Shown here piece after piece: positions 1 through 16,392 of a stretch of DNA of 16,392 bases. Position 1 is the first letter of the stretch, and each line of letters starts with the position of its first letter. The stretch lies in the IMG/VR virus record IMGVR_UViG_2541047751_000017. The stretch is one strand, 5' to 3'. The notes under the pieces were generated by a model, which saw only the letters and a program-made list of their open reading frames with translations, did no database searches and had not been told where the DNA came from. The translations under genes and the position numbers were made by a program. The DNA comes from a virus. Its lineage: Duplodnaviria; Heunggongvirae; Uroviricota; Caudoviricetes.

Positions 1-615
1 GTGAGCAGAAAAGATACTAAAGAATTGCTAACTATCTGCATGGTGTACTTTTCAATTTATTTTTGTGCATACATGATAGTCCCAGATGAGTTTGAACATG
101 GCAGTATTATTTATTCCATAACATTCTATTTTTTAGAGCTAACACCAATTTTGGCTATCCTTTTGGCAATACATATTTATTTTTCCTTAAAAAAAGAATC
201 GACTAATTGGGAGAAGGTATGGAGAGACAGAGGATTTCTAACATCACCTAAAGATGATGCATATGAGAGTGATTTTTCTGACTTTATAACAAACTACTAC
301 TCCAGCGAACAATTCAAAAATAGACTGTCTGATGTTTGGGAAACAGCAATGTATTCCATAGGGATTATATTATTGATACTTACTGGTATTGCTCAATATG
401 TTTTTAACATTGACTTATCATTAAATCCTGAAAATTTAATATCGCCATTGATTTTTGGTGAGATATTGATCTTCTCATTCGGAATTTTCTTGAGTGTTGT
501 TCTCTGCTCATTATGCAAGCTACTGACTAACAGGTATCCAGGTGAAGCAAGGAGAGCAAGAAAGGCAAATCCATATTATCTTTTATTTCCTAATGGAGAC
601 AGCAGAGATATCTAA
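1..615 (+). CDS. Hypothetical inner-membrane protein, 4 predicted TM helices; AT-rich cargo gene, possible superinfection-exclusion or abortive-infection factor
   Basis: 204-codon ORF in visibly AT-rich DNA where stops are frequent. Four hydrophobic segments at roughly residues 9-27, 40-63, 116-135 and 146-175. Track start is GTG at 1; an in-frame ATG at 40 is an alternative. Convergent with the 701-aa gene, 19 bp apart. Confidence 0.6.
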   Translation: MSRKDTKELLTICMVYFSIYFCAYMIVPDEFEHGSIIYSITFYFLELTPILAILLAIHIYFSLKKESTNWEKVWRDRGFLTSPKDDAYESDFSDFITNYYSSEQFKNRLSDVWETAMYSIGIILLILTGIAQYVFNIDLSLNPENLISPLIFGEILIFSFGIFLSVVLCSLCKLLTNRYPGEARRARKANPYYLLFPNGDSRDI

Positions 616-2740: not shown

Positions 2741-4161
2741 TAATCACCCCATAGTGAAGAAAAGTTACTGCTGGCTGCTGGCTGTGATACCTGCTCAGAT
2801 TGCGGCAATGTCTGCGACGAAGAAGAAGTTCCTCTGTCAACTGCTGAAATAACCCGCAAAGCATCATAAGCTCGACCAGAAGCAGCTTTCAGCGAATTGA
2901 ACTGGTTTTCCATCTTCCGGCGCTTGGTATCAATGGTTTTTGTGGAGTCGCCAGGCTGAGGGAAATACATTTGATAATATTTTGACATTTCAGCAGGTAC
3001 GATGGCTGCCCCTGTTTCCTGACGGAGTATTGCCATTATTGCGTCATTAGCATTAACAACGTATTGCTGTTCTGTTGGGCTGAGCGTTAAGTTAGCCAGC
3101 GTCCCATTACCCAAAGCATTATTAATGATCGCCACTCGCTGTGGGCTAAGCTGGTCTTTCAGTGTATCTATTGAATCAAGAGCATCCCTAACCCTGTATG
3201 CAAATCCAGCAGCTTTTTTAGCCCCTTCTGGCGACTTTTCCATGATCTTTTGGGCTGTTGGCAAAGCTATTGGACGAAACCCATCTCCAGATATTGGCTG
3301 GTTTAGTTTTCCCTGCTCTTCACTTCCGTCTGTGTAGTATTTTGTGACAGTGCCATCATCGTTTTCTCTAACACTCATTAATTTTTTGGCGTTTGTATTA
3401 ATTCCAGCCGCTGCCGCAAATGCCGCCGCCCCCTCTGGATCCGCCTTTAACATTTGAGCGTACTGATTGTAATTCTGCATTGCTGCTGTTGGTGCATATG
3501 CTGACGTTAACGCATTTGCTCGGCTAATATCCTGCCCTCTCGCCTGAAGTGCTTCGCCAGCCTGATTGCTGCGGATTGTTTCTGCCAACTTGCCACGCTC
3601 AATATCCCGACCTTCCATTTGATCTTTGATATCGAAATACTTCTCATGACCGAGAGAAAACAGTGCCATACTACCAGCAAGCCGCTGGAACCCCTGTGGA
3701 TCATTAACATGCATTTCGGCAACAGACTCAGGAGAAATTCCCAAGCGACGCATTTCATCTTCGTTATCTGCTATGAATTTTCCAAATGCCCCAGTTCCGA
3801 GCGAAGATGCGATTTGAGCACTAGTCGCAAGATGACCAATAGAATTTCTCTGGTCGTCATCAATAAAGCCCATCCCTTTCTGAACGCTTTCAAATTCTTC
3901 TGGATACTCAGAAATAAGACTGCGCATTTTGTTTCTGTCTCCAGACTCAAAAGCCCCGGCATATGCTTTCTGAAACTCTGCTTTACGCTGTTGTTGACGT
4001 GCCTGCTGATTAATCTCAGCAACGCCTCTTAGCCCCTGTAGCGCCATTAAACCTACGTTTGGCTGCTGCTGATACTGCACAGGCTGAGGAACGGAAGAAC
4101 GAGGAGCATTATCATTTTGCGGTGCCATGCTAGGCAGCCCGCCAAGTTGCCATGTCGCCAT
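2740..4161 (-). CDS. Putative phage ejection/DNA-transfer protein, P22 gp20-like by position and size
   Basis: 473-aa ORF (P22 gp20 is about 471 aa, recalled from memory). 1-nt start/stop overlaps with both neighbours. Gln/Ala-rich, no recognisable catalytic motif. Confidence 0.5.
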   Translation of the reverse strand: MATWQLGGLPSMAPQNDNAPRSSVPQPVQYQQQPNVGLMALQGLRGVAEINQQARQQQRKAEFQKAYAGAFESGDRNKMRSLISEYPEEFESVQKGMGFIDDDQRNSIGHLATSAQIASSLGTGAFGKFIADNEDEMRRLGISPESVAEMHVNDPQGFQRLAGSMALFSLGHEKYFDIKDQMEGRDIERGKLAETIRSNQAGEALQARGQDISRANALTSAYAPTAAMQNYNQYAQMLKADPEGAAAFAAAAGINTNAKKLMSVRENDDGTVTKYYTDGSEEQGKLNQPISGDGFRPIALPTAQKIMEKSPEGAKKAAGFAYRVRDALDSIDTLKDQLSPQRVAIINNALGNGTLANLTLSPTEQQYVVNANDAIMAILRQETGAAIVPAEMSKYYQMYFPQPGDSTKTIDTKRRKMENQFNSLKAASGRAYDALRVISAVDRGTSSSSQTLPQSEQVSQPAASSNFSSLWGD

Positions 4162-4838
4162 TAGAATCCAAGCCCCCCAACAAGACCAATAAGCCCACCA
4201 CCAATAGCGCCGGCCGCAGTTCCTATTCCAGGAACAACGGAACCAAGTTGCGCACCCGCTAAAGCGCCTGATGCTGCCCCACCAATACCACGCGCAAGAC
4301 TGGATGGCTGCTGCGCCTGACCTGCACGAATAGCGCCAAGCCCCTGCAAGAGTTGTCCGGTATTATTGGCGTAGTTTTGCCCTGCCGTTGCCTGCCCTGA
4401 TGCCGCATTCATCCCGACATTTAGCAGGTTTCCATAATTTTGCATTTGCCCACTGAGCCAATTGTTATAAAGCATGGGCGCAATGGAAGATAACTGGTTA
4501 CTGGTAGCTGTTGAGCCAAGCCCCCCGGTAGCTTCTGCTGAGACAAGGTTCTGATAACGGGCCTGATCTGCCTGTGTTTTATATAAACCAGAACCAAAGA
4601 AATCATTCGCGGCTTTATTCTGCCCTTCCAGAGTCATCAGTCCTTGTAGTTGTTGTAAAGCAGGCAATCCGACTTCTGCATACGGCTTGAGATTATTCAT
4701 CACCGTATTCCACTGCTCGCGCTGCAAATCAATTGCCTGCTGCTGGGCCTTCGCCTGAGCTTTAGAGGCACCACCATCACCGCCTTTTTCGTATACGGCA
4801 CGATTGAGATGTTTATGAGCTATGTGGGTAATTAACAT
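4161..4838 (-). CDS. Putative phage ejection/DNA-transfer protein, P22 gp7-like by position and size
   Basis: 225-aa ORF (P22 gp7 is about 229 aa, recalled). N-terminal YEKGGDGGAS motif, Gln/Ala-rich centre, Gly-rich hydrophobic C-terminus (GIGTAAGAIGGGLIGLVGGLGF). Overlaps the upstream 153-aa gene by 7 nt. Confidence 0.5.
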   Translation of the reverse strand: MLITHIAHKHLNRAVYEKGGDGGASKAQAKAQQQAIDLQREQWNTVMNNLKPYAEVGLPALQQLQGLMTLEGQNKAANDFFGSGLYKTQADQARYQNLVSAEATGGLGSTATSNQLSSIAPMLYNNWLSGQMQNYGNLLNVGMNAASGQATAGQNYANNTGQLLQGLGAIRAGQAQQPSSLARGIGGAASGALAGAQLGSVVPGIGTAAGAIGGGLIGLVGGLGF

Positions 4839-5293
4839 TCGCTGAATTCCTTATATTGTTGCCGAGTTAACTGATAAAGCGTTACGCCGACGGGTTTACC
4901 ACATCTGATATAAGCATCATCAAGGTGACCAACACGGGTAGCGCCAAGCAAACGGATAATTGCCCGTCCGTATTTCGTGGTGTCAGGAACCATAGTAATG
5001 CTGTTAAGGAATGGTGAGTTTTCGAGAAGCCATTTGCAGAATAATCGATGCCCTTGCAGTGCATATTCACCACGGAATCCGGGGTCGTACACCGCATGGC
5101 ATTCAACAACGCTATGCCAGAAGTTACGCACTTCATGAACGCCAGCCAGCACTAATCCTTCGTAGATGCCGAGATATACCGCATCAGGCTTGATGTAGTA
5201 CGTGTGCCCCGGCTCAACAATATTTTCGGTATTGCCTGGCTCGTTAAGAAAGGCCTGTAATCGCACAGGGTTATCAATAAATTTTAGTTCCAT
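4832..5293 (-). CDS. Hypothetical protein, first large gene of the ejection-protein-like operon (P22 gene-14 position)
   Basis: 153-aa ORF with ATG start at 5293, protein-like composition, co-oriented and overlapping the next gene. Confidence 0.55.
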   Translation of the reverse strand: MELKFIDNPVRLQAFLNEPGNTENIVEPGHTYYIKPDAVYLGIYEGLVLAGVHEVRNFWHSVVECHAVYDPGFRGEYALQGHRLFCKWLLENSPFLNSITMVPDTTKYGRAIIRLLGATRVGHLDDAYIRCGKPVGVTLYQLTRQQYKEFSEC

Positions 5294-5309: not shown

Positions 5310-5471
5310 TCACATACAGCCTGCCAGCGCCTTATCTATTAACCCTCGTGCAATTTCATGCAGAGTTGGCGCTACTCCAATTCCTGATTTTTTACGCTGC
5401 TCTTCCTGAATTTTCTTTATCGCTTCCATTTGCTTCTCACTTATCAATACCGGCTTTACTGAAATAGCCAT
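5310..5471 (-). CDS. Possible small ribbon-helix-helix-like DNA-binding protein (53 aa); not in the ORF track
   Basis: Own translation of the minus strand: MAISVKPVLISEKQMEAIKKIQEEQRKKSGIGVAPTLHEIARGLIDKALAGCM. ATG at 5471 is preceded by AAGGGGG 4 nt upstream. Pattern is short strand, helix, G-rich turn, helix, as in Arc/CopG/ParD-type proteins. Stop lies 16 bp from the 153-aa start. Confidence 0.3.
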   Translation of the reverse strand: MAISVKPVLISEKQMEAIKKIQEEQRKKSGIGVAPTLHEIARGLIDKALAGCM

Positions 5472-5566: not shown

Positions 5567-5598
5567 AAAAAAATGCCACCGCTCAGTAGCTGGTGGCA
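5567..5598 (-). terminator. Rho-independent terminator ending the primase operon
   Basis: Inverted repeat TGCCACC (5574-5580) / GGTGGCA (5592-5598) with an 11-nt loop; on the minus strand the stem is followed by a 7-U run (plus-strand A run 5567-5573). Confidence 0.55.
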
Positions 5599-5792
5599 TC
5601 GTTCTGTGTGTCAGGTTTTGACAGGTTTTTTATGGACTCTAAAAACTATATTTATGGTGTCGCATTACTCTTCACGGCAGGCGCTTTTCAGTTCTGCCCT
5701 TGCTTCTGGCTCCATTGGTAATTTGATTCGCGATCAGCTATGCGGATGGTTTGCTGAACAGGCATAACAACTTCTCAGAGGCTGTTTTTTGA

Positions 5793-5869: not shown

Positions 5870-5919
5870 CACTCTCTGATGCCAGCCAGGTGTTGTGCGC
5901 ATCAATTCAGTCACATTGT

Positions 5920-6030
5920 GTTGGTTCAAAATACCGTGTTGTTGGTTCAGTGTTGGTTCAATAAAAAGAATAAAATCCTTATAAAACAATACTCTTTACA
6001 AATTGAACCAACTGAACCAACTGAACCAAC
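5920..6030. repeat. Iteron array, putative replication origin: six copies of GTTGGTTCA, three direct and three inverted, around a 43-bp AT-rich spacer
   Basis: GTTGGTTCA at 5920-5928, 5941-5949, 5952-5960; reverse complement TGAACCAAC at 6004-6012, 6013-6021, 6022-6030 (tandem 9-bp period); AT-rich spacer 5961-6003. Lies just 3' of the primase-helicase gene. Confidence 0.6.
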
Positions 6031-6055
6031 ACCTTTTCTACGCACATGAAGAAGC

Positions 6056-8815
6056 TCATTCTTCAGATGAGTTATAATCTCCTGGCTGGTAATTGAGTAC
6101 ATAAACGTTTATTTGTCGTCCCTGAATACGTGGTGATTTTCTTTGGTATCCACGACCGCTGTTTGGTGGGGTTAGCATCCCGGCTTTTTTCAACACTTCA
6201 GCAAACTGTTTTGCGTTGAAACCACATGCGATCTCCTTTTCAAATGTGGCCGGGAATGTGTAGAAAATCATTGGGCTTTCGTCATGTTCTCCACGCTGAC
6301 GGTATCCGGCTAAATCTTTGATGGGCAAATCTGCCGGGCTGTATGGAAATGGTGCAAAACGGCTAAGCCCATAGGCATTAAGAAATGCCTCCGTTTGTTC
6401 AATAATCTGCTGATGCTCTTTGTTACCTGTGCCGAACTCACGCAACCATGCGTTATAGCTGTGCTGTATCGCATCACGGCATGTCTGAGCATCCCAGCCT
6501 GTTACAACCTCGCCTAACAACAATGCGGCCTCCAGAATGGCAAATCGCGCGGCTACACGGTGAACCTGCTCACCATAATCGGATGGGATCAGGCTTCTCC
6601 ATCTGCTTTCGCAATCACGAACGGTTTTAATAGCCTGTTGCTGGTGGTCTGCCAGCCATTTAATCCACTCACGCCCGGACGCGCCGTGGTGATGCTGGTA
6701 AGCGTCTTTCAGTGCGTCTGCGTGCTGTTTTCCGTTCTGGTAATCGTGAAAGCGTACTGCTTTACTCAACGGAATATTCAGCAGTCGCACCAGTTGCCCG
6801 GCTTTGGTTTTTCGCCCGGAAGTAGCGATAAATGTTTCTAAATCCATTTCTCCGGTGCTGATTGCCACTGTACGCCAACGTTTTAGATCCCGGTTTCCAC
6901 CATCTTTAGCGCCTTGCAGTTTCCCTACACCGTTAAATAACGCATAGGCAGACTGTGAAACGCTGACAGGATCAGCGCCCTGACCAACTTCATCAAGCGG
7001 CATTAGTCCGTCATTGTGGGCGGCGGCCTCATTTGCCAGCCCCAGCGCGGTTCCGTACCACGTCAGCCGCAGTAAATCAGGGTTGCCGTATAAGCTGCTC
7101 GCCACGTTTGCCGTGGTGGTCTTACCTGCGCTCGACTGCTCATAGAAATGAATGCCGAACCCGTCAGCGCCCACCAGCCCAATCAATGGCGCTGCCAGTG
7201 CTGCGCCGATCCCGGTCATCATTGAATAGTTACCAAAGGCCAGACGCGCCACGTTATCACGCCAGCTTTTCGCGCTCCCTGAGACGGTATATCCGGCTGC
7301 GGCTGAGCTTCTCCCGCTGAACAGCACAGGATTTTCAGGTGTTCCGATGATTTCCCCATCAGGCATGATGTACGCTCCGCATTGCCAGCCAGTGGCATGA
7401 GCAACACGCCACAATTCACGAGAGCCACTGCGTTGTAGCCAGTCTGCCAGTATTGCTCTGAGGCTGCTTTTGGTCGTGACATTTACCCCACCAGCTTTAA
7501 GTGTGCGCCATCCTTCACGTTCACCAATATCAGCCAGTGGAATGGCAGCGGTTGTCGGCGTTTCAGAACCAAACGACAGCCAGCGAAGAATGAGATACTG
7601 GTCTTTATCGTCTCTGCCAGTACCGATAACGCTTAACGGAGAACATAACCAGCTTTCGTTATTGATGATTTCTCCACTCTGGCTGTCAGCTCTCGGAGAT
7701 ACCCAATAAATACCATCCTCGCGGCTTTCTATTCTTGGTTTCAGTGGGTCGGTATCCATAACCTTAAAATCGCTTCCCTCAATGGTCTGTGGCTCCTGTT
7801 TCACGCCATTACCCTGTGGTTGGTACATTGACTTATTGAACGCTTCTGTGGCGCATTTAATGCCGTGTTTTTGGTGGTAATCATTCCAGTCTGCTTTGTG
7901 ATCTGTCGGGGGTAATGCCACCCATCCAGAAACAGATAAAGCTGCTTTTTCTGCTGCTATTCTCCCCGTGTTTTGTCTTCCTTCGCTGTGGTCGTTATCC
8001 GCAGCAATGATGATTTGTGCTGAAGGAAATTTATCCCGCAGTACCTGGGCGACATATAACAGGTTCCCGGCATCAATCGCCGCCACTGTCAGCGCCTCTG
8101 GACGAATTAAATGGGCAGATAATGCCGTTGCCAGCCCTTCTGTAATTAAGATGCTCTGTGTTGTTTCTGGCGCGTTTATGGCGTGATATGCCCCCCGCTT
8201 TGCTGAACCTCTCAGGAGTCTTTTTTCACCATGTGAGGTAATAGTCTGTGCTGCTGTGACTGCGCCGGATTTATCCACCAGCGCCAGCAACAGAGATCCA
8301 TCGGGCAACACGGGGAATGTAAAATCACCTACCCCTTTCGCAACCAGATAATCAGATTTGCCGTTTACAGCCTTTCTGCGCATGTCATCAAACTGACGGG
8401 AAAACGTATCCCGTCTTTGTTGTTCGTCCTTCTCTGCCCTTTTCAGGCGCTCCTGTTCGCGTCGCTGGCGCTCGGTTTCCAGTTGTTCCCGTTTCTGGCT
8501 GGTGGCTTCTGGTGTTTCCGTTGTCCGGTAATCAATACCCAGAACATCAGCGGCAAGAAGCGCCGCCTCTGTTGTGTCGCAGTTATTTACGCGTTTAATT
8601 AAATCCAGCCCATCACCAGCGCCGCACTGATTACAGATGAAGCTACCGCGCCCGTTGTCATCGAACCGGAATCGATCTTTGCCCCCACATGCAGGGCAGG
8701 GAGCATGACGGCGCGGAGAGTCAGGGACATTTATGTTCAGGCAGCCCAGCACATGAGGCCAGTTGTTTTCAGACGCACTGATAACCTGACGGATAAGATC
8801 AATGTTTCGCATCAC
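6056..8815 (-). CDS. Primase-helicase, P4 alpha-like (zinc ribbon, TOPRIM-type primase domain, P-loop NTPase domain)
   Basis: 919-aa ORF. N-terminal CPACGG...CNQCG zinc-binding motif, ITEGLATA (EGYATA-like) and AADNDH TOPRIM-type motifs, Walker A SSAGKTT, charged coiled-coil linker (ERQRREQERLKRAEKDEQQRRD). Track start is GTG at 8815; ATG at 8812 is an alternative. Confidence 0.85.
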   Translation of the reverse strand: MMRNIDLIRQVISASENNWPHVLGCLNINVPDSPRRHAPCPACGGKDRFRFDDNGRGSFICNQCGAGDGLDLIKRVNNCDTTEAALLAADVLGIDYRTTETPEATSQKREQLETERQRREQERLKRAEKDEQQRRDTFSRQFDDMRRKAVNGKSDYLVAKGVGDFTFPVLPDGSLLLALVDKSGAVTAAQTITSHGEKRLLRGSAKRGAYHAINAPETTQSILITEGLATALSAHLIRPEALTVAAIDAGNLLYVAQVLRDKFPSAQIIIAADNDHSEGRQNTGRIAAEKAALSVSGWVALPPTDHKADWNDYHQKHGIKCATEAFNKSMYQPQGNGVKQEPQTIEGSDFKVMDTDPLKPRIESREDGIYWVSPRADSQSGEIINNESWLCSPLSVIGTGRDDKDQYLILRWLSFGSETPTTAAIPLADIGEREGWRTLKAGGVNVTTKSSLRAILADWLQRSGSRELWRVAHATGWQCGAYIMPDGEIIGTPENPVLFSGRSSAAAGYTVSGSAKSWRDNVARLAFGNYSMMTGIGAALAAPLIGLVGADGFGIHFYEQSSAGKTTTANVASSLYGNPDLLRLTWYGTALGLANEAAAHNDGLMPLDEVGQGADPVSVSQSAYALFNGVGKLQGAKDGGNRDLKRWRTVAISTGEMDLETFIATSGRKTKAGQLVRLLNIPLSKAVRFHDYQNGKQHADALKDAYQHHHGASGREWIKWLADHQQQAIKTVRDCESRWRSLIPSDYGEQVHRVAARFAILEAALLLGEVVTGWDAQTCRDAIQHSYNAWLREFGTGNKEHQQIIEQTEAFLNAYGLSRFAPFPYSPADLPIKDLAGYRQRGEHDESPMIFYTFPATFEKEIACGFNAKQFAEVLKKAGMLTPPNSGRGYQRKSPRIQGRQINVYVLNYQPGDYNSSEE

Positions 8816-9170
8816 CGTACCCCACGTGGTCTATAGCGTTTGCGATATGGCTAACCAGCATCTGCCACTTGGTTATTCCGTAATCAGTCAGCATGCCATC
8901 ATTGTTTAGCCACATATCAAATTCAGCGGTTGTCGCAAGTTTCCACTTATCGCCGTGGACAGTCCTCATTGCTGGGTACATGAATGCGCAAATCAGATCA
9001 CAAACATCTGACGGCTTCAGAGATGTAGTAATGATGCGTCCCTCTGGCGTCTGAATTGCCATTTTCTCTTCACCAGTAGAATGAAGGTTATGAATCCACA
9101 CAGCACCAGCAATCTTTGCCACCTGCTCTCCGATTGCGGAGCTAAGCGCCATTTCTGCATTTTCACGCAT
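8799..9170 (-). CDS. Hypothetical protein (123 aa), primase-operon member
   Basis: ATG at 9170 preceded by GGAGG at 5-nt spacing; overlaps the upstream gene stop by 8 nt and the primase start. Confidence 0.55.
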   Translation of the reverse strand: MRENAEMALSSAIGEQVAKIAGAVWIHNLHSTGEEKMAIQTPEGRIITTSLKPSDVCDLICAFMYPAMRTVHGDKWKLATTAEFDMWLNNDGMLTDYGITKWQMLVSHIANAIDHVGYGDAKH

Positions 9171-9504
9171 GAGAACCTCCCGCTACAGTTGCGCCCATGT
9201 CATTAACCATGCTTTGCCATATCTCACGCCCGACGTCAGTCAATCCGTCCTTAGTGACGCAACGATCAAGAAGCTCGATCCCCACGGTTTCCCACTGCGG
9301 GTAGAACACTTTCATGGCTGCCAGTGTGTAGCTATCGATCAGGCTGCGAACGCCTTTTACTCCATTGACGATTTCCACACGGACGGCCTCGCCGTCCGCA
9401 TCAACCATGAAATAGTCCCCGCCGCTGGTGGAGGTAATGTGGTTATACAGTGCCGACGCATACTTATTTGCCAGCGCATTCAGTCGGAAATTTTTAGTAA
9501 TCAT
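9163..9504 (-). CDS. Hypothetical protein (113 aa)
   Basis: ATG at 9504 with AGGA-type RBS; 10-nt gap from upstream gene; stop overlaps the next start. Confidence 0.55.
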   Translation of the reverse strand: MITKNFRLNALANKYASALYNHITSTSGGDYFMVDADGEAVRVEIVNGVKGVRSLIDSYTLAAMKVFYPQWETVGIELLDRCVTKDGLTDVGREIWQSMVNDMGATVAGGSHA

Positions 9505-9514
9505 GGCTCCATCC

Positions 9515-10117
9515 TCAGTGCGTCACTGGTTCCGCTGGCATGCCGTTTTCATTCAGTTCAGCTATAAAGCTGTTGTGAAGTTCAGCAAGCGTTTCACGAC
9601 CAAATGGAGTCAGTGCTCCTTGTTCCACATCCATCATGGCTCTGTAGAAAATGATGGCGCGTTCTGTGCCAGACTCGATGCCAAAACGTTCTATCATCGC
9701 GCCCTCAATGTTGTTTGCCATAGCGAGGCGCTCTGCTACTGGATACAGCGGCATGGCGACGATGCCGTTGGAATAAACAGCCACTTCGGAAGGATTGCCA
9801 GTATCATCAATGATGCTGACAGTGCCGTTTTCCTCTCTCATTTCCAGCATGAATACTGTTGCGATCAGCCATCTCCACATAATGACGTTATGCTGTGATG
9901 TGTAATCGAAATATCCCTGGTTGCCGCCATCGGCTATAGCGAGATGTATTGACATACCTTCATCTGGTTTATCGTCATAATCCCCGGCATCCAGACGATT
10001 TACGGCATCAATATATGAGACGGCCTCAACGCGTTCTGTCATGCCATCGTTGCTGCGGTACATGATGTTTACGCCGTCAGGCGTTGCTTCTGCATGGAAA
10101 GTTAAGAAATTATTCAT
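9515..10117 (-). CDS. Hypothetical protein (about 200 aa from ATG at 10117; track ORF extends to a TTG at 10222)
   Basis: ATG at 10117 preceded by GAGG at 6 nt and overlapping the upstream gene stop by 8 nt, matching the coupling pattern of neighbours. Start at 10222 or at the ATG at 10150 cannot be excluded. Confidence 0.5.
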   Translation of the reverse strand: MNNFLTFHAEATPDGVNIMYRSNDGMTERVEAVSYIDAVNRLDAGDYDDKPDEGMSIHLAIADGGNQGYFDYTSQHNVIMWRWLIATVFMLEMREENGTVSIIDDTGNPSEVAVYSNGIVAMPLYPVAERLAMANNIEGAMIERFGIESGTERAIIFYRAMMDVEQGALTPFGRETLAELHNSFIAELNENGMPAEPVTH

Positions 10118-10331
10118 GTTTCGCCTCGCCTGAATGATTCTGTAACTCATATTTGCCCAACAATTCGTCTGCTTCCTGAATAGCTTCTGGTACGCCATTG
10201 AGCAGTGACATAACCGCGCCAATCATTAACTTGTCTCTGTTGCTGGGGCTGGCCCCTTCAAGCCAGAACCCTAAAACAGTCTGAACCTGTTCGATGCGAC
10301 ATTGCGCTTCAATGAGCTGGATGTTGGTCAT
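10110..10331 (-). CDS. Hypothetical small protein (73 aa)
   Basis: ATG at 10331 with GGAGAG RBS at 6 nt; ATGA overlap with the upstream gene. Confidence 0.5.
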   Translation of the reverse strand: MTNIQLIEAQCRIEQVQTVLGFWLEGASPSNRDKLMIGAVMSLLNGVPEAIQEADELLGKYELQNHSGEAKHE

Positions 10332-10591
10332 TTCGCACTCTCCGCATCGATTAAACTGATATCTATCAGAGAGGTAACTTTTTGTAGCCAGCTAGTGATT
10401 ACTGTCGCCTGTTCCCCTCCCACCGATGGAAGAATCTCATTCATCACATGAACCAGACCTGTGCGCGCCCTGGTAAGCCGTTCAGTCGTGCGATCTGCAA
10501 GAGTGAATGTGTCTGGATATGGCTCTTCACGGCTCAGCAATGATTCAATTTCCAGCTCACACGGATGACGATAAATTAAGTTGATATTCAT
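10328..10591 (-). CDS. Hypothetical small protein (87 aa)
   Basis: ATG at 10591 with GGTGGTG RBS; ATGA overlap with the upstream gene. Confidence 0.5.
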   Translation of the reverse strand: MNINLIYRHPCELEIESLLSREEPYPDTFTLADRTTERLTRARTGLVHVMNEILPSVGGEQATVITSWLQKVTSLIDISLIDAESAK

Positions 10592-10782
10592 TTTTCACCA
10601 CCAAGAATTACCAGCTCTGCACGGGCATCGTTAACCAAAGATGAGCACGCTTTAATCGCATCCACGACATCAGCAGCGTCCATTTCTTCAGCCGAAAGAC
10701 TGACAGCAACCAGGACAGCCGCTGCTTGCTCGATTAATTGAAGTGCGGACGTAAGGCGAGGGGCATTAATTGAGTTATTCAT
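10588..10782 (-). CDS. Hypothetical small protein (64 aa)
   Basis: ATG at 10782; 8-nt overlap with the upstream gene. Confidence 0.5.
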   Translation of the reverse strand: MNNSINAPRLTSALQLIEQAAAVLVAVSLSAEEMDAADVVDAIKACSSLVNDARAELVILGGEK

Positions 10783-10993
10783 TGGTTGCCCCCGTTTTTA
10801 CTGGCATTTCGCCACCTTCCAGCAGGAAATGAACGTCACGAACGGCGAGATCCAATATCGCGAGTAACGCCTTCAGTCTTTCGTCTCGTGAGGGAGAGTT
10901 GCTCACCAGAATGTCGTTAATCACTTCTGTCAGTGTGATGATCTGGCTTGTGCGTTCGAGGGGATCCATATGCACATCGTAGGTTTTAATCAT
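10775..10993 (-). CDS. Hypothetical small protein (72 aa), short form of the 355-codon open frame
   Basis: Internal ATG at 10993 preceded by a near-ideal GGAGG at 6 nt. The residues just upstream in the long frame (AWRWH) look like an RBS read as codons rather than protein. Confidence 0.5.
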   Translation of the reverse strand: MIKTYDVHMDPLERTSQIITLTEVINDILVSNSPSRDERLKALLAILDLAVRDVHFLLEGGEMPVKTGATNE

Positions 10994-11842
10994 GTGCCAC
11001 CTCCATGCGGATACGACCAGCAAAAAAGCAGACGTGATCGCGCACCAGAGAACGGCGAGCATCGCGTTCAGACTCGGCAGCAATATGATGAATTTTGGCG
11101 GTAATTGTCGGGCAATCGCGGCGAACTGCGGCGATAATCCAGATAAATTGCGGTTTTTGGGTAGGGGTAGTAGCCAGCATGTGGCAGCCTCCATTCGATA
11201 GCATGTAACGCTACCACCGGAAACGCCAATTTCGCTGGTGGTAGCCCAGACAGGGTTGGCGTAACCGGCTCGAATGGATACCGGCGCTTCCGAAGAAGCC
11301 CCTGCCTGAGCCACCATTGATTGACAAAGGCGCTGGATTATACACCAACGCCCAAAAAATGGGTGAGTCAGACCTACGACATAAAAAAAGACGCTCGGCG
11401 CGTCATATGTCGCCATTCGATTTACCAGGACGCCAATCCCGGCACCCGTTTTATGAGGTGCCTTATAACCATAAACCGTGTTGCCGCATAACGGCAAGCT
11501 CTTTTTTATGGACTCCGAAAACTCACTATTGGAAGAACCAGAAGCACAGTACATCGCGCTCATTTCGTTAACGTCACGCGCGTGGACGAAGGTTTTTGTG
11601 GAGTCACTACGCGAGCAGAGAAAGCCATCTACGACCAGAAATTCTCTGGCGCAGCCGCTGACCTTCTCAACGCTAACACCATCGACCGTAATTTCTGACA
11701 TAGTTAAGGCATCCGCTCCTACCACCAGCAAATGATAAACTTTGCTTGTATCTGCTGTATTAATGCCTGACTTTGCCGTCATATTGCTGGATTTTGGCGA
11801 CATACCAGCCAGTGAAAATGTCTTCTTCTGGGCGGTTAGCAT
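10775..11842 (-). CDS. Alternative long form: 355-codon open frame from a strongly initiated ATG at 11842; possibly a fused or frameshifted gene
   Basis: ATG at 11842 has GGAGG at 7 nt and overlaps the stop of the upstream 60-aa gene. The frame stays open for 355 codons, but residues encoded between about 11000 and 11250 are Trp/Cys-rich and not protein-like. Confidence 0.25.
11208..11245. promoter_or_regulatory. Inverted repeat GCTACCACC / GGTGGTAGC with 18-nt spacer, possible RNA stem-loop or operator
   Basis: Perfect 9-bp arms at 11210-11218 and 11237-11245; no adjacent U-run, so not a classical terminator. Confidence 0.25.
11481..11508 (+). terminator. Plus-strand terminator-like hairpin, antisense to the main operon
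   Basis: Stem TTGCCG (11481-11486) / CGGCAA (11492-11497), 5-nt loop, 4-nt spacer, then T6 (11503-11508). A TTGACA hexamer sits at 11321-11326 without a well-spaced -10. Confidence 0.25.
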
Positions 11843-12018
11843 TTGTTAACCTCCGCGAACTCCTTCATGAAACGTGCCAGCGGTTGTACGCATGGCGATT
11901 GATACCCGTCGCGATAAAACGTCACTCGGTTGTGAGACACGCTTTCGACAGTAACGAGTGCTCCGTGGGCATCTTTGTAGCGTTTTTGAGGTTGTGGTGT
12001 TCCTGTCGGCTTAAACAT
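11836..12018 (-). CDS. Hypothetical small protein (60 aa from the ATG overlapping the antirepressor stop)
   Basis: ATG at 12018 overlaps the stop of the 277-aa gene (ATGTTTAA arrangement). The track ORF extends upstream to 12105, but that extension overlaps the preceding gene. Confidence 0.45.
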   Translation of the reverse strand: MFKPTGTPQPQKRYKDAHGALVTVESVSHNRVTFYRDGYQSPCVQPLARFMKEFAEVNKC

Positions 12019-12844
12019 GGACCGCCTCCAGACGCTTGGCGAGCCAGCGTTGCGACAGGCGGGTGAGTTCTCCTTTACGCTGCTCATATTCCATGCCCAT
12101 ATCAATTAACGTGATATTGGTGCTTTCGAGATATGAGAGGTGCTCAAGCTGTTCTGCGTTCATATGGTCGCGAGGTTCGCCAGAATAGCCATTTATCCGC
12201 GCCCACTGCTTAGCAGTTAGCCCACCAAGAACGATACGAGAAATCATATTGCTCTCGTTTGTGTAGTGGTGTTGCTGCGTCGTTTTACCCATCTCGGCAC
12301 GGGCCATATTCAGCGCATCGCACATTGGCTTAAAGTTGTTTGCGGCACTGATACGGGCTTTTAGCTGGCGACGATAGCGGGCGGCGATTTCAGGCACGCT
12401 ACGCTGTAATTCTTCCTCGCACTGGATGAAATAACGGCGGATAGCGCGCCCCTGATCATTGCGTTCGATCATTGCCAGTTCTTTCGCCATTCCGACACTT
12501 AACAGATAGTCTTTGCCGGGTCTGCCAGACTGCTTAATCTTGCTGTAAGCCGCGTCATTCGGGCTTTTCCCCAAATTTGGGGAAATTGTTTTATGGACTG
12601 AGTAATCGTGCCCAATGGTGAAGTCATATTCAGAGATGCGATCAGTGATCCATGTAGAGAAGTCTTTTCCCACGCCCAACGCTTTGTGTAACGCTTTTGC
12701 GCTAACAATATTGGTTTCACGCCCACCGATATGACCAGGAATAACCGGGACAATTGCGGCAAATTCATTACCGTTAATTGTGCCCAGAGAGGCGTTCAGA
12801 TGAGGGGCGGCCTCAGAAATTAATCTGCTTTTTTCGATGTTCAT
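12011..12844 (-). CDS. Phage antirepressor-like protein, AntA/AntB N-terminal domain type
   Basis: 277-aa ORF; GGAG RBS 8 nt upstream. N-terminal segments SAKALHKALGVGKDFSTWITDRISEYDFTIGHDY and DYLLSVGMAKELAMIERNDQGRAIRRYFIQCEEEL match, from memory, the conserved AntA-domain pattern of phage antirepressors. Confidence 0.65.
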   Translation of the reverse strand: MNIEKSRLISEAAPHLNASLGTINGNEFAAIVPVIPGHIGGRETNIVSAKALHKALGVGKDFSTWITDRISEYDFTIGHDYSVHKTISPNLGKSPNDAAYSKIKQSGRPGKDYLLSVGMAKELAMIERNDQGRAIRRYFIQCEEELQRSVPEIAARYRRQLKARISAANNFKPMCDALNMARAEMGKTTQQHHYTNESNMISRIVLGGLTAKQWARINGYSGEPRDHMNAEQLEHLSYLESTNITLIDMGMEYEQRKGELTRLSQRWLAKRLEAVHV

Positions 12845-12856
12845 TTTCAGTCTCCG

Positions 12857-13288
12857 TTAGGCGGCGTTAAACGCGTTCGGGTAGAGTTTCAGAATGTCGG
12901 CAATTTCCTGCTGAGAAAGTCCGTTGTGATCATTTATGTTCGCAAGATGGTTAACATGAGTGATCACTTTCAGAACATCACCACGGCAGGAGAAACGGTA
13001 GCGAAGGTGTGTTCCGATACCATCAGGATTCTTTTCGTCGATACGCTCCAGAGTGATTCCAAGCTGGCGTTCTAACTCTGTTGCATAGTTACGACCAGAA
13101 GACAGACGGCAGTAGCGAAGAATGTCATTTTCTGTCCATCCCTCTATACCAGTACGCAGCATATAGACTCTGGCACGATGCTTTTTCGGTGTGCGCTTTG
13201 GTGCTTGAAGGGATTTTGTAAGGGGCGTAACATCAGATACGCGAATATCTGAATTAGCCGCCTGTAATGGGCGGTTTTTCTTTTCCAT
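12857..13288 (-). CDS. Hypothetical protein (143 aa), basic N-terminus, coupled to alpA
   Basis: ATG at 13288 overlaps the alpA stop by 1 nt (TGATG); AAGGTGG RBS at 4 nt. Lys/Arg-rich N-terminal third. No family recognised. Confidence 0.6.
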   Translation of the reverse strand: MEKKNRPLQAANSDIRVSDVTPLTKSLQAPKRTPKKHRARVYMLRTGIEGWTENDILRYCRLSSGRNYATELERQLGITLERIDEKNPDGIGTHLRYRFSCRGDVLKVITHVNHLANINDHNGLSQQEIADILKLYPNAFNAA

Positions 13289-13506
13289 CAGGCCACCTTC
13301 CCGCGGCGTTCTGCCAGCCAGTTATTAATTTCCACCGCATCAAACGCAGTCACGTTATCTGTTAGCTTCACTGGGCGTGGAAGAGTGCCATTTTTAACCC
13401 ATCTATCAATAGTAGGCAGTGAAACACCTAGCAATTCCGGCATGCGAAAGCGACGGATGTATCCAGTTGTTGGGATAGCTGATGATGCTGGCTTGTGTGC
13501 TGTCAT
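13288..13506 (-). CDS. alpA: AlpA-family phage transcriptional regulator/excisionase-like protein
   Basis: Motif RMPELLGVSLPTIDRWVKNGTLPRPVKL is the canonical AlpA helix-turn-helix signature. Start placed at ATG 13506 (72 aa, GGAG RBS at 9 nt); the track ORF extends to 13575 without RBS support. Confidence 0.8.
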   Translation of the reverse strand: MTAHKPASSAIPTTGYIRRFRMPELLGVSLPTIDRWVKNGTLPRPVKLTDNVTAFDAVEINNWLAERRGKVA

Positions 13507-13574
13507 ATGTTCTGTAACTCCTGTGATAGCTGTTGAAGTTACGGTAATCATGTGAGCAGGGGGATTAGATGTCA

Positions 13575-13603
13575 TCGCAACGAAAAATGGATTTTCGTTG
13601 CGA
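13575..13603. promoter_or_regulatory. Perfect 12-bp inverted repeat with 5-bp spacer, putative operator in the alpA promoter region
   Basis: TCGCAACGAAAA-atgga-TTTTCGTTGCGA at 13575-13603, in the 105-bp gap between the 293-aa gene stop and alpA. No U-run follows the stem on either strand. Confidence 0.4.
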
Positions 13604-13611
13604 AATTATCT

Positions 13612-14493
13612 TTATGATTTAAAAGATTTGTTAGCTGATGAGAAATATTCATCCAGTAAGCGGGAGCTTAATTTTAAACCCCTATCCAGCATTTCTGCTT
13701 TGAGGGCTTCTTGTGTCCACCTTTTAGAAGTTGGTTCGGCTTTCTTTAAAGCGTTGAGCACCGCGCCAAGCAGTAAAAGGCTTTCATCGAGGTTCAGGAG
13801 ACTGTTGTTATCACTGAGTGTTTTCTTTTCAAATTCTGCAATATTTTCTTTTCTGAATACGAACTCGACATTACCCAGCCCATCAGCAGGATAGAAAAAG
13901 GGATGATAACCATCGAGGCTAAAGTCAACAAACCTCTGTGATTCTTTGTCGTACAGTTTAGGTTTGCCATTTTCATCTGACTTGATGGCATATTCATTGA
14001 ACGCGTTCAGAATATTCACCAGACCAAATTCTGTTAAGAGGAAAGCACCTTCCATGTTGTGAAATTCACGGGGAACCTTGTCGCGTGAAAGGTCAAACTC
14101 GTGCATAACATCTAAAGATTCAGCCCCAACCATCGGTAGATCGTATATGCCATGATTAATACGAAAAACATCACTGACTCTTTCTATATCTTCGTATTCA
14201 TAATCCAATTGTTCATTAGTATAGAATTCATCACCGGCAGGAGTTCTAATTACCGCACCTTCGTTAGTATTTTCAACAATCCACTTTTCAAAAACTCTTC
14301 GTTGCGAGTTTTTGATGACTTGAGCAGCGATAGCGTAACGGCCTTCGTCCAATATCGCTGAAATTGTAATGTGGCCTTCTACAGCCAATTGCAGGCAATC
14401 GGCTACAGATACCCTTTCACCGAGTGTTGTGCTTAACCTGTTTGCGGTTTCCTCTATGGTCAACCAACTTTTGAACTGGAACAATTTGCTCAT
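13612..14493 (-). CDS. Hypothetical protein (293 aa), AT-rich cargo gene between int and alpA; candidate accessory or defence gene
   Basis: Long ORF in DNA visibly more AT-rich than its neighbours. Acidic, soluble-looking protein with no TM segment and no recognisable catalytic motif. Confidence 0.7.
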   Translation of the reverse strand: MSKLFQFKSWLTIEETANRLSTTLGERVSVADCLQLAVEGHITISAILDEGRYAIAAQVIKNSQRRVFEKWIVENTNEGAVIRTPAGDEFYTNEQLDYEYEDIERVSDVFRINHGIYDLPMVGAESLDVMHEFDLSRDKVPREFHNMEGAFLLTEFGLVNILNAFNEYAIKSDENGKPKLYDKESQRFVDFSLDGYHPFFYPADGLGNVEFVFRKENIAEFEKKTLSDNNSLLNLDESLLLLGAVLNALKKAEPTSKRWTQEALKAEMLDRGLKLSSRLLDEYFSSANKSFKS

Positions 14494-14586
14494 AGCGTAA
14501 CCTTTCGCGCTGCCTTAAAGAGTGACCGGAACAGGCGGTAAGGCTTTCCGCTTTTCGCCCCGTCGGGCTAGTTCCGGTCTGTTCGG

Positions 14587-15846
14587 TTACTTTGCCTTTC
14601 TGATAGGCGTCACGTTGTAATCTTCGCCCTTCTCCAGAGCCACCAGCAAGCCCGCCCACTGTGTTAACGCAGCCCGGCGCTCGTCAAAGTATTGGTGACG
14701 GTTATAGATACCCTCAACGCCTTTTATGCGGTGATTGAGGCATCTTTCAGCCACTACCGGATCAACGCCCAGCGCTGCTAAATGAGTACGTGCGGTGCGT
14801 CGGAAGTCGTGAATCGTGAAATTAGGCACATCCGGCATTTCGGCGCGAACCTTAGCCAGTGCTACGGGTAAAGTGCTTTCCTGAATATGTGGAATCATTC
14901 TGTTTTGCATCTTCCTGGCCGGAAGCACCCATGCGCTATTACATGAAAAGGTGTGTAGCTCTCTCAACCATTCAACGGCTGGGGAAGGTAGAGGTATATC
15001 AATAGGGTCTCCGTTTTTGCTGCGTTCTTCCGGCAAATGCCATACCGCACCATCTAAATCAAACTCTTCCCATCGTGCGGCGCATAACTCCATCTTACGA
15101 ACGCATAGTGCCAGCAATAGCTTAAATGTCAGTTCGTTTTGGCGGCTGAATCCTTTTGCGGTGCGCATAGCCTCGAATAGCCTGATAAGCTCATCGCGAG
15201 TTAGCCAACGGTCGCGGGAAACCTCTTTACCACCAGCATCAGATACTTCAAACGCTGAACAAGGGTTTATCTCCAGAGCGTGGCGTTTTATCCCATAGTC
15301 AAAGATACGGCGTGTCCAGCGTAATACATCTGTTGCTATCGTTGGTGCTCCTCGGTCAACGATACCTTTCAACATGTCGTCAATGTGGCGTGGCTTAACG
15401 TCCTCTACCTTCATATGCCCAATGCAGGGGTTAATATCCTTATCAATTCTCCGGCGAAGGATATCGGGATGTTTCCATCTCGGAAGTATCTGTCGCTCGA
15501 AGTATTCGGCGGCCAGATCTGAAACGCGCATGGCGTTTTTCTCAGCCTCCATTTTTGCCAGTGCTTCAGCTTTTCGTTCCTGTTTTTCTGCTGCTACGTC
15601 ATAGCCAAGAGCAACTCTGGCTGACAGCTCTTTTGCTGTTTCTCTGGCTTTTGATAGTGACAGTTCGGAGTAAGAGCCGATAACCATAGCCCGCTGTTTT
15701 CCTGCGAGCTTATATCGGAATCGCCAGAACGGGACTGTGTAGTTTTTGGGGTAGCAAATATAAAGGCCGTTGCCGTCTGCCTTGCCATCAAATCTGTCTC
15801 CCGCCTTTATCCATGCGCGGATCTGCATATCTGTGAGTTTTGGCAT
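14587..15846 (-). CDS. int: Tyrosine-type site-specific integrase, P4-like (N-terminal arm-binding domain plus catalytic domain)
   Basis: N-terminus LTDMQIRAW...DGNGLYICY...WRFRYKLAGKQRAMVIGSY fits the P4-type integrase N-domain pattern. C-terminus carries HDFRRT (H-x-x-R) and GIYNRHQY (tyrosine nucleophile region). Start placed at ATG 15846 (MPKL...); the track ORF begins 28 codons upstream. Confidence 0.9.
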   Translation of the reverse strand: MPKLTDMQIRAWIKAGDRFDGKADGNGLYICYPKNYTVPFWRFRYKLAGKQRAMVIGSYSELSLSKARETAKELSARVALGYDVAAEKQERKAEALAKMEAEKNAMRVSDLAAEYFERQILPRWKHPDILRRRIDKDINPCIGHMKVEDVKPRHIDDMLKGIVDRGAPTIATDVLRWTRRIFDYGIKRHALEINPCSAFEVSDAGGKEVSRDRWLTRDELIRLFEAMRTAKGFSRQNELTFKLLLALCVRKMELCAARWEEFDLDGAVWHLPEERSKNGDPIDIPLPSPAVEWLRELHTFSCNSAWVLPARKMQNRMIPHIQESTLPVALAKVRAEMPDVPNFTIHDFRRTARTHLAALGVDPVVAERCLNHRIKGVEGIYNRHQYFDERRAALTQWAGLLVALEKGEDYNVTPIRKAK

Positions 15847-15875
15847 TGCGAATACCTGAATATCGAATATGGGTG

Positions 15876-15971: not shown

Positions 15972-16008
15972 AAAAAAGCCCGACATTTCGCGGGCTTTGT
16001 GGTTTTTT
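15972..16008. terminator. Bidirectional rho-independent terminator between int and the OMP gene fragment
   Basis: Stem AGCCCG (15977-15982) / CGGGCT (15991-15996) with 8-nt loop; A6 upstream (15972-15977, giving U6 after the stem on the minus strand) and a T-rich tract with T6 at 16003-16008 downstream. Confidence 0.55.
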
Positions 16009-16080
16009 GCTGCTTGGTGATTTTTACTGATAGCTTATTCGATATTCTGAATCAGAAACAGCAGTGCATTCACTCCATGG

Positions 16081-16392
16081 GTGTCTGTTGGACTGGGTTA
16101 TGCACGGATACATCATAAGGCAACATATACTGATACCTCCTGGAATAAATCTGGTGAGGTGAGCGATATTTCTGCGTTGCATTACTCGGGATATGATAAC
16201 AATTTCGCATGGAGCATTGGGGCCGGTGTTCGCTATGACATAACCCCGGATATCGCTCTTGACCTCAGCTATCGCTATCTGGATGCTGGTAAATCCTCCC
16301 TGTCTTACAAGGATGCAGAAGGGGATAAATATAAATCAGAGGCTGACGTTAAAAGTCATGACATCATGTTTGGTGTGACTTATAACTTCTGA
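16081..16392 (+). pseudogene. 5'-truncated outer-membrane beta-barrel protein gene, Ail/Lom/OmpX/PagC family (C-terminal about 100 codons)
   Basis: Ends with a beta-barrel terminus (...IMFGVTYNF, terminal Phe) and alternating aromatic strands (YDITPDIALDLSYRY). An in-frame TGA at 16048 and absence of signal peptide or RBS upstream show the N-terminal part is missing. Confidence 0.6.

Follow-up and report, generated by a model that had tools for sequence, protein, structure and literature searches.

The 16,392-nt stretch of DNA recorded in IMG/VR as IMGVR_UViG_2541047751_000017 (called here, at its full length, the window) raises the question of whether it carries a phage satellite or a piece of an ordinary prophage. 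The original prediction bore on the region 6056-15846, which lies entirely on the minus strand and runs from the int ATG (15846) to the last base of the primase stop codon (6056). It saw there the core of a satellite resembling P4 or a phage-inducible chromosomal island (PICI), unless adjacent phage morphogenesis genes made it part of a prophage. Four genes for virion proteins of the P22 type and a SieA-like gene do adjoin the region. Yet they belong to the satellite, as indicated by the chromosomal genes that flank the composite in other strains, by the different integrases with which it is found, and by the excision of the whole of a relative, EcCIMP1, as one unit from Escherichia coli MP1; the description of the region as a satellite core therefore stands. 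We conclude that the window very probably represents most of an ~18-kb PICI-type satellite of the EcCIMP1 family, with P22-like (Lederbergvirus) temperate phages as helpers.

EcCIMP1 is a PICI of E. coli MP1 (Pick, Stadel and Raivio, 2025; PMC11773190). It excises only when Kapi1, a P22-like Lederbergvirus, is present, and int and alpA are required; alpA is induced upon helper induction, and Kapi1 transduces EcCIMP1 while a chromosomal marker is not transduced (PMC11773190). Sequencing of attP established that EcCIMP1 leaves MP1 as one 19,963-bp unit, in which the ejection genes described below are included (PMC11773190). The window was 97.9% identical to EcCIMP1 at the nucleotide level over positions 4001-13298 (9.3 kb), an interval bounded by the 5' part of gp20 and the 3' end of alpA, and the gene order is the same, late zone included; the novelty implied for the core by the original prediction is thus lost to an element described in 2025. 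Outside the two breakpoints (~4001, and 13298 in the 3' end of alpA), the elements differ: the window int is 29% identical to that of EcCIMP1 and is associated with a yicC-type att site instead of tRNA-Thr, an extra 293-aa gene separates int from alpA, the gp20 and gp16 alleles are others, and a SieA-like gene occupies the place of an EcCIMP1 lipoprotein gene. Because of the divergent int and the yicC-type att block, the sequence identifies the element as EcCIMP1-like, not as EcCIMP1 itself. EcCIMP1-like elements are defined by a conserved antirepressor/Ash/primase core, with int, AlpA and PerC variable, and CfCIP10159 has been named as the PICI most similar to EcCIMP1 (PMC11773190).

Five phage-derived genes lie past the primase, in window positions 1-5293 and outside the region first flagged. 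They form, with a small gene called orf53 (5310..5471, minus strand, strong Shine-Dalgarno sequence), a late zone in which orf53, gp14, gp7, gp20 and gp16 constitute an operon separate from the early one, and the SieA-like gene is convergent with it. The homologue of P22 gp14 (4832..5293, minus strand; DUF2824, 153 aa) matched PF11039 (E = 2e-61) over profile positions 1-148 of 151, and was 98% identical to its EcCIMP1 counterpart and 84% to that of the helper Kapi1. The homologue of the P22 gp7 ejection protein (4161..4838, minus strand; 225 aa) matched PF25688 (P22_gp7) with E = 7e-73, with 98.7% identity to EcCIMP1 and 58% to Kapi1. The homologue of the P22 gp20 ejection protein (2740..4161, minus strand; 473 aa) matched Inj_translocase (E = 5e-58) and the full length of phrog_917; it was 48% identical to EcCIMP1 gp20, in the N-terminal 188 aa only. 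The last gene of the operon encodes a P22/Sf6-type gp16 ejection protein homologue (635..2740, minus strand; 701 aa) that matched the full length of phrog_770, a DNA transfer protein family (E = 8e-161). Its closest phage copy is that of Escherichia phage N7 (67% identical), and BLASTP found no match between it and the gp16 of EcCIMP1 or Kapi1. EcCIMP1 gp20 and gp16 are themselves only 26% and 24% identical to those of its helper Kapi1.

All four ejection open reading frames (ORFs) are intact and of full length relative to their Pfam or PHROG profiles. Comparison of the E. coli genes with those of Leclercia gave dN/dS values of 0.05-0.09 for gp14, gp7, gp20 and gp16, and values of 0.15-0.30 were obtained for the ejection genes among E. 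coli variants; those of the primase (0.07-0.18) are similar. In P22-like phages, gp20 and gp16 need to be cognate to each other and are targeted by SieA; Leavitt et al. reported that foreign gene 7/20/16 sets work in P22 virions and alter their sensitivity to SieA (PMC10883804). The replacement of gp20 and gp16 together, between the window and EcCIMP1, fits both the cognate-pair requirement and the targeting of these proteins by SieA. As foreign 7/20/16 sets function in P22, it is plausible that the ejection proteins of the island change where satellite particles deliver their DNA.

The gene at the end of the window (1..615, plus strand; 204 aa, GC content 0.32) encodes a multi-pass inner-membrane protein. 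It is convergent with gp16, which is the position of sieA in P22-like phages; it gave a weak match to the SieA-like family phrog_7745 (E = 4e-4), and its C-terminus, TNRYPGEARRARK (RYPGEA), resembles the SieA motif FxRYPxEAxxFNK (PMC10883804). This match, the short motif and the gene position hint at a SieA-like protein. No tblastn match to it was found in 50,697 phage records; as a SieA, it would therefore be of a divergent type seen exclusively in islands or prophages.

The cassette resembles the P22/Sf6 ejection module in its gene order (14, 7, 20, 16, then the sieA position) and in its full-length profile matches. It differs from it in that the island copy follows a satellite primase and origin and not genes 4, 10 and 26, is devoid of tailspike, coat, portal and terminase genes, and carries alleles far from those of the helper. 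Profile searches of the window detected no capsid, coat, scaffold, portal, terminase, tail or lysis gene, and from the P22-like prophage set only the gp14, gp7, gp20, gp16 and sieA homologues were present. Kapi1 queries detected no P22-type coat, portal, terminase, gp4, gp10 or gp26 gene at less than 10 kb from the primase in any of ~150 related loci. The set characteristic of cf-PICIs (capsid, portal, protease, connector, small terminase) was likewise absent from the window and from the flanks of related islands. The statement that the region has no sid/psu-like, terminase or portal gene was borne out by these profile searches together with tblastn using P4 proteins.

The extent of the element was deduced from whole genomes containing at least 80% of the window. 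These were 96 complete E. coli genomes, and all matches ended at position 16053. In CX21 the island, 98.4% identical to window positions 1-16053, sits between dinD and yicC; it measures ~18.3 kb and runs ~2.3 kb past window position 1, up to a PerC-family gene. The primase-origin-orf53-gp14-gp7 junction was present in 237 of 5,426 complete E. coli genomes (4%). Alignment of the window with the CX21 yicC junction and with intact tia defined, on the int side, an att identity block (16036..16053) that is an island-supplied copy of the yicC 3' end. The gene yicC is listed as a PICI att site (PMC10111431), and the published attL of the yicC PICIs CfCIP10159 and EcCIRM13514 (PMC10111431 supplement) resemble the int-side end of the window. 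These two islands, compared at att only, use the same region at the yicC 3' end, whereas the window junction is in tia; the CfCIP10159 attL closely matches the window, including its terminator hairpin and the sequence running up to int. This bidirectional terminator-like hairpin (15975..15998), found by a terminator scan between the att block and int and also present in the published yicC-PICI attL, would stand in for the yicC terminator. ARAGORN detected no tRNA gene in the window, and a tRNA as att target of this element was rejected in favour of the yicC 3' end. At the far end of the CX21 island there was no exact repeat of 10 nt or more; an 8-nt core, TGAATCTG, alone is common to both ends.

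In the window, the partner of the att block at the 16053/16054 junction is not yicC but the middle of tia. The last 350 nt (16043..16392, plus strand) are the 3' part of this invasion outer-membrane protein gene, 99.1% identical to the tia of IAI39 and others and cut at the island junction. The window reads ...TTCTGAATC followed by AGAAACAG, the yicC junction ...TTCTGAATC followed by TGCTCGCG, and intact tia, across the same point, ...TATGACTTC followed by AGAAACAG; in the alignment the similarity between tia and yicC-type sequence at the crossover is only loose. Among the 5,426 complete E. coli genomes, not one has the tia-island junction. It probably reflects secondary-site integration, or a rearrangement, that truncated tia, and such islands can disrupt virulence genes at secondary sites.

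Comparison of island copies revealed extensive reassortment. The yicC int accompanies window-type gp20/gp16 in the window and in CX21; the tRNA-Thr int is found with MP1-type gp20/gp16 in EcCIMP1 and in locus L007, and with window-type gp20/gp16 in L008 and L089. Three variants (L006, L091 and L093) have neither gp14 nor gp7. One of them, at tRNA-Thr in E. coli Ec-050-T5-ESBL (L006, 7400-11149), has orf53, gp20 and gp16 but neither gp14 nor gp7; the selection that maintains gp20 and gp16, whatever its nature, therefore does not require gp14 or gp7. The order orf53-gp14-gp7-gp20-gp16 is also found in diverged islands, in Leclercia (L037) and in the IMG/VR contigs L117 and L118. A 430-kb contig labelled Chryseobacterium sp. 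18061 (L010, CACSKA010000004.1) carries an Enterobacter-type island with an int 88% and a primase 78% identical to those of the window; this contig is probably a contaminant or mislabelled.

How does this organization compare with that of described satellites? Gram-negative PICIs are organized in four ordered zones (PMC10111431), which are Integration (with AlpA), Bro (with the C4 and isrK RNAs), Replication and Late, the last being dynamic and capturing late genes of the helper. In the window, int, alpA and the replication module are in one direction, on the minus strand; AntA and Ash domains follow alpA, with C4 and isrK RNAs scoring above their gathering thresholds inside the Ash ORF; and the origin consists of three plus three inverted 9-nt iterons around an AT-rich spacer. 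The original prediction was right that the element falls outside the P4-like layout, having no sid, psu, delta or epsilon, but this layout is not an undescribed one, as it fits the four-zone PICI plan. The fis PICIs and HE-PICIs (Tommasini, Mageeney and Williams, 2023) and the cf-PICIs share the same four zones and dynamic late capture. Their captures are lambda-type late clusters or full capsid sets, whereas the island of the window and its relatives have taken specifically ejected DNA-delivery proteins (P22-type ejection proteins, tape-measure proteins, lytic tail or internal proteins), placed behind a conserved small gene.

P22 ejection genes are present in only about one-tenth of the primase relatives. 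In the other relatives, two classes of genes were found directly after orf53. The first, which usually has a 108-aa ORF ahead of it, encodes tape-measure proteins recognized by TMP_3, Phage_HK97_TLTM or TMP_4 and by the PHROG 'tail length tape measure protein' (E down to 0), and the second encodes large SLT/transglycosylase proteins annotated as 'lytic tail', 'internal virion' or 'tail injection' proteins. Among the loci with orf53 and at least 2.5 kb downstream, which are not independent samples, 74 of 86 carry a protein of the tape-measure or of the lytic ejection-type class within 6 kb. In Chimaeribacter coloradensis (L024:4131-22473), an 18.3-kb island at yicC, with a 14-nt direct repeat, CAGATTCAGAACAT, at both ends, has the same type of int, alpA, primase, PerC and orf53, and a 1136-aa tape-measure protein replaces gp14-gp16; no other morphogenesis domain was found in its ORFs scanned against Pfam. 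The size and the site of this island match those of the E. coli island. A sub-group of IMG/VR contigs (L126, L127, L132, L135-L137, L143 and L144) encodes after orf53 a 566-570-aa protein combining a tape-measure N-terminus and a transglycosylase, next to it a baseplate-hub-like 301-aa protein, and further ORFs (221, 247 and 267 aa in L126), which represents a slightly larger distal-tail capture.

The gp7/gp20/gp16 proteins, the tape-measure proteins and the lytic ejection-type proteins have in common that they are virion components that leave the particle and aid the passage of DNA across the envelope. One reading of this pattern, which we put forward tentatively and regard as possible though doubtful, is that this satellite family, having no capsid-remodelling or packaging genes, keeps behind orf53 ejected DNA-entry proteins of helper type. 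Loaded into helper particles as a divergent injection kit, they would let satellite DNA enter cells that block the helper's own, or would spoil helper progeny. Such a kit would consist of P22 gp7/gp20/gp16 (and gp14) for podovirus helpers and of tape-measure or tape-measure/transglycosylase proteins for long-tailed helpers. Its main target could be helper lysogens expressing SieA-type proteins, which are the cells that the satellite needs to reach, and the joint swaps of gp20, gp16 and the exclusion gene would then record an arms race over DNA entry. In the literature searched, the coverage of which is incomplete, satellites with ejection or tape-measure proteins are not described as a pattern; tape measure proteins are unmentioned in the PICI survey (PMC10111431), and a 2025 preprint considers them essentially unknown in satellites. 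The DNA-delivery pattern is thus possibly new.

Other readings of the locus were weighed against that of a PICI-type satellite. The likeness to P4 is real: the integrase family, the alpA-type regulation and the Toprim domain of the primase are shared, the N-terminal 340 aa of the primase being 33% identical to residues 5-339 of P4 alpha. The immunity region has a CI/C4 RNA with an upstream seqA-like target and terminator, recognized by Rfam models, by loop/target complementarity and by DNA homology with P4 (71% identity over 162 nt, 92% over 38 nt), and iteron clusters occur at two places of the island, which recalls the P4 ori/crr pair. A strict P4-like satellite with a P2-like helper is nevertheless extremely unlikely. 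The remainder of the primase had no match to alpha and its helicase is of the DUF927 and not of the alpha type. The element measures ~18 kb, versus 11.6 kb for P4; its captured virion genes come from P22-like podoviruses, and the helper tested with EcCIMP1, Kapi1, is P22-like, not P2-like. The only P4 proteins that matched the window by tblastn were int (25%), alpha in its N-terminal primase portion (33%) and the ORF of the cI region, and neither the window nor the whole CX21 island gave a match (E < 0.01) to Sid, Delta, Psu, Epsilon, Gop, Beta, CII or ORF88.

A decayed P22-like prophage, or a fusion of satellite and prophage by deletion, would leave gp14-gp7-gp20-gp16-sieA as inert remnants. 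The cassette and its convergent moron are exactly in P22-like order (as in Kapi1 and 720R6), such a block is also at the int-distal end of an integrated P22-like prophage, and a prophage/island tandem followed by deletion is a recognized possibility (PMC10111431). We consider this very unlikely, because the composite occurs, with integrases that are unrelated, at two att sites (dinD/yicC and tRNA-Thr/proA) and directly borders chromosomal genes at both, because the ejection genes of EcCIMP1 excise with the satellite, and because the four ORFs are intact and under purifying selection (dN/dS 0.05-0.3). Moreover, their alleles have been exchanged with the order kept, a two-gene variant exists, the cassette always comes right after orf53, where relatives have tape-measure genes, and the P22-type morphogenesis genes sought in the ~150 loci are missing from the 10 kb around the primase. 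Alternatively, the island could serve its host independently of any helper, through exclusion by the SieA-like protein and regulation by PerC, the ejection proteins acting as intracellular decoys, for example by blocking phage channels. EcCIMP1 indeed adds superinfection immunity against Kapi1, no known defence system was found in it, its transduction frequency is very low, and a Kapi1-like prophage was found in only 2 of 21 EcCIMP1-carrying strains (PMC11773190). PADLOC finds no defence system in the window other than a weak PDC-S22 match to the antA C-terminus, with nothing for h293 (the 293-aa gene), for the SieA-like gene or for the small genes, and the window copy sits at a non-canonical site. 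This alternative is nonetheless improbable: helper-dependent excision and transfer have been demonstrated for EcCIMP1, purifying selection on the primase (dN/dS 0.07-0.18) and on int (0.02) is strong, and the reshuffling of integration modules and the variety of att sites point to horizontal movement that is still going on.

Several observations weigh against a PICI-type satellite equipped with its own ejection cassette. The int-side junction of the window is in tia and not in yicC, and the other end lies beyond the window; this copy may no longer be mobile. Transduction of EcCIMP1 by Kapi1 is extremely low (PMC11773190), and specific packaging may thus be inefficient in the family. The P22 pac 22-mer had no match in the window at up to three mismatches. 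A blastn comparison of the window and EcCIMP1 with the whole Kapi1 genome detected gp14 and gp7 only, nothing near terS and no pac candidate. According to its authors, EcCIMP1 is classed no higher than a 'Type C' PICI in the scheme of de Sousa (PMC11773190). Four virion ejection genes and a size of ~18 kb depart from the original PICI criteria (no structural or lysis genes, 12-15 kb); later work accepts late-gene capture in PICIs (PMC10111431), and EcCIMP1, which has these genes too, behaves as a PICI (PMC11773190). Finally, purifying selection on the ejection-protein genes could partly predate their capture from phages.

A life cycle can be proposed for the PICI-type satellite, largely by analogy. 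In the resting state, the C4-like RNA would keep the early operon terminated or untranslated, as in P4 and P1. Induction of a resident P22-like helper would raise alpA expression, as in EcCIMP1, and AlpA would then drive Int-mediated excision and expression of the operon. The primase-helicase would replicate the circle from the iteron origin, and concatemers of the ~18-kb element would fill the ~40-kb headful of helper capsids, with transfer at low frequency. The late zone would supply its own divergent ejected DNA-delivery proteins to helper procapsids, and the SieA-like protein would protect the carrier cell from P22-like superinfection.

The integration module starts with int (14587..15846, minus strand), which encodes a P4/PICI-type tyrosine integrase of 419 aa that matched Arm-DNA-bind_3, Phage_int_M and Phage_integrase (E = 1e-17 to 1e-20) as well as phrog_1. 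This is the yicC-targeting allele, 99.8% identical to the CX21 int located beside yicC. Directly 3' of the int stop codon, cmscan identified an int-alpA RNA motif (RF02996; 14512..14578, minus strand) with 66.1 bits for a gathering threshold of 35.8 (E = 4e-12). The accessory gene h293 (13612..14493, minus strand; GC content ~0.40) is an ORF absent from EcCIMP1, and its product had no match in Pfam, PHROGs, NCBIfam, PADLOC or PDB sequences (Pfam searched to E = 5 gave noise). In Enterobacter sichuanensis (L016), a copy with 95% identity (dN/dS 0.14) is found next to an int with 90% identity, and copies 48-49% identical were found in Erwinia (L029 and L067); the gene accompanies the yicC-type integrase and may be an accessory or defence gene. 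The alpA-family helix-turn-helix gene (13288..13506, minus strand; 72 aa) matched Phage_AlpA (E = 1e-5), HTH_17 and phrog_66, and its start agrees with the 219-nt coding sequence annotated in CX21. From the result of alpA deletion in EcCIMP1, its product is likely both master regulator and excisionase.

The stretch between alpA and the primase, both included, comprises 12 ORFs with the same orientation on the minus strand, in agreement with the 'about twelve' genes announced, and the Pfam domains Arm-DNA-bind_3/Phage_int_M/Phage_integrase, Phage_AlpA and AntA confirmed the identities given to int, alpA and the antirepressor. The start/stop overlaps are of 1, 8, 7, 8, 4, 4, 8, 8 and 14 nt, and two pairs of neighbours are separated by 12 and 10 nt, respectively; the overlaps of 1, 4 or 8 nt reported were thus essentially right, with values of 7 and 14 nt to be added. 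Ribosome-binding sites are good, as claimed, with a GGAG- or GGAGG-type Shine-Dalgarno sequence ahead of nearly all starts. The first gene after alpA, h143 (12857..13288, minus strand), whose start overlaps the alpA stop by 1 nt, belongs to a conserved family (55-84% identity across Enterobacterales islands, dN/dS 0.12-0.30) and gave weak winged-helix hints. It is followed by an antirepressor-like gene of the AntA/Bro network, antA (12011..12844, minus strand; 277 aa; AntA E = 1e-21, phrog_5817 anti-repressor E = 1e-37), by a small DUF4222 gene (11836..12018, minus strand; E = 2e-24) that shares 8 nt with antA and 7 nt with the Ash ORF, and by the Ash-family ORF itself (10775..11842, minus strand; 355 aa; Phage_ASH, PF10554, E = 3e-30), the counterpart of the P4 eta/kil region. 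The possibility that this 355-aa ORF is a frameshift artefact was dropped, PGAP annotating the full 1068-nt ORF in other copies. Downstream are three translationally coupled small genes (10110..10782, minus strand; 64, 87 and 73 aa, overlaps of 8, 4 and 4 nt; phrog_20558 for the 73-aa protein) and a phrog_1515 family gene (9515..10117, minus strand; 200 aa, E = 8e-47), which is 30-65% identical across the family. The last two genes before the primase are a coupled pair (8799..9504, minus strand) consisting of a PHROG-matched phrog_37628 gene (113 aa) and h123 (123 aa), both missing from L006.

The immunity RNAs are embedded within the Ash ORF, and the P4 cI-region ORF matched positions 11347-11010. 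An isrK-like element (11384..11461, minus strand; RF01394, 67.1 bits for a gathering threshold of 50) is the counterpart of the P4 seqA target and terminator; it was 92% identical to P4 8608-8645 (the 38-nt seqA region) and contains a hairpin and T-run at 11404-11390 (terminator scan). A C4/CI-type antisense RNA (11234..11321, minus strand; RF01695, 79.5 bits for a gathering threshold of 45, E = 2e-14) lies in the 162-nt segment (window 11159-11320) that was 71% identical to the P4 CI region (8347-8506). Its loop, TCCATTCGA, is complementary to TCGAATGG (11420-11413) of the isrK-like element. A second C4-complementary site, TCGAATGGA (11198-11190), is located 4 nt past the start codon of a predicted Icd-like ORF (10986..11204, minus strand; 72 aa; NF033153 phage_ICD_like, E = 5e-20), which lies in another frame within the Ash ORF and is annotated by PGAP in CX21 and MP1. 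This C4/isrK/Icd layout corresponds to the P4/P1 immunity arrangement and would function likewise. The Ash (PF10554), Icd-like (NF033153), isrK and C4 models all map to overlapping DNA, and the conservation of the RNA genes may account for some of the signal of the Ash protein family. The original prediction had mentioned neither the three Rfam RNAs, nor the Icd-like ORF, the iteron origin and the five downstream phage-derived genes.

The primase-helicase (6056..8812, minus strand; 918 aa) matched Zn_Ribbon_Prim, Toprim_3 and DUF927 (E = 1e-15 to 1e-47) and phrog_1139 (E = 1e-178). Relatives 51-82% identical are present in ~65 Enterobacterales species, and the gene was found in 80 IMG/VR contigs, in 76 at 52-82% identity and in 4 as identical copies. 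No phage record covered 80% or more of the primase. Klebsiella phage P12620-1 (H108, PQ569648.1, a 106-kb record) encodes at 99053-100741 a protein 69% identical to primase residues 338-907; it has the DUF927 helicase and the C-terminal part without Toprim, and it is the sole phage record that matches the primase closely. The replication origin (5918..6030), 26 nt past the primase stop, consists of two sets of three iterons, GTTGGTTCA and then, inverted, TGAACCAAC, separated by ~40 nt of AT-rich sequence, which conforms to the layout stated for PICIs (PMC6092414). A second iteron-bearing segment, near PerC and outside the window (L001:10494-10603 in the CX21 island, L002:10729-10839 in EcCIMP1), is inverted and 78-80% identical to the origin (5916-6037), from which it is separated by ~7.5-8.7 kb in CX21 and EcCIMP1. 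The early operon ends with a terminator-like hairpin, GCCACC...GGTGGC followed by T7 (5570..5604, minus strand; terminator scan). Beyond it, at 5510-5505, a TATAAT box associated with a poor -35 is a putative promoter of the late operon.

The first gene of that operon, orf53 (dN/dS 0.03-0.19), is present in most of the species representatives and, among the IMG/VR loci, in 58 of 80. Nothing was detected in Pfam; the AlphaFold2 model (pLDDT 86) has an extended N-terminus and two helices, and the best PDB match by Foldseek, the PutA ribbon-helix-helix domain, was not significant (E = 0.5). The model suggests that orf53 possibly encodes a ribbon-helix-helix DNA-binding protein, a candidate late regulator or packaging factor. 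It is the one late-zone gene kept family-wide (L009-L166), and it is always directly 5' of tape-measure or ejection genes.

Taken by itself, the element is an ordinary and common E. coli satellite, a near-identical relative of which has already been tested in the laboratory, and the flagged region adds little alone. The part worth following is the late zone, with the DNA-delivery pattern. The genes that the authors of EcCIMP1 left as 'hypothetical, maybe packaging' are a complete P22 ejection set with, in the window, a SieA-like gene; together they offer a testable explanation for the unexplained superinfection immunity of EcCIMP1 and for its missing packaging module. The tape-measure or lytic ejection-type proteins carried at the same position by relatives in many Enterobacterales suggest that what characterizes this family is the hijacking of DNA entry, and not of capsid size or packaging.

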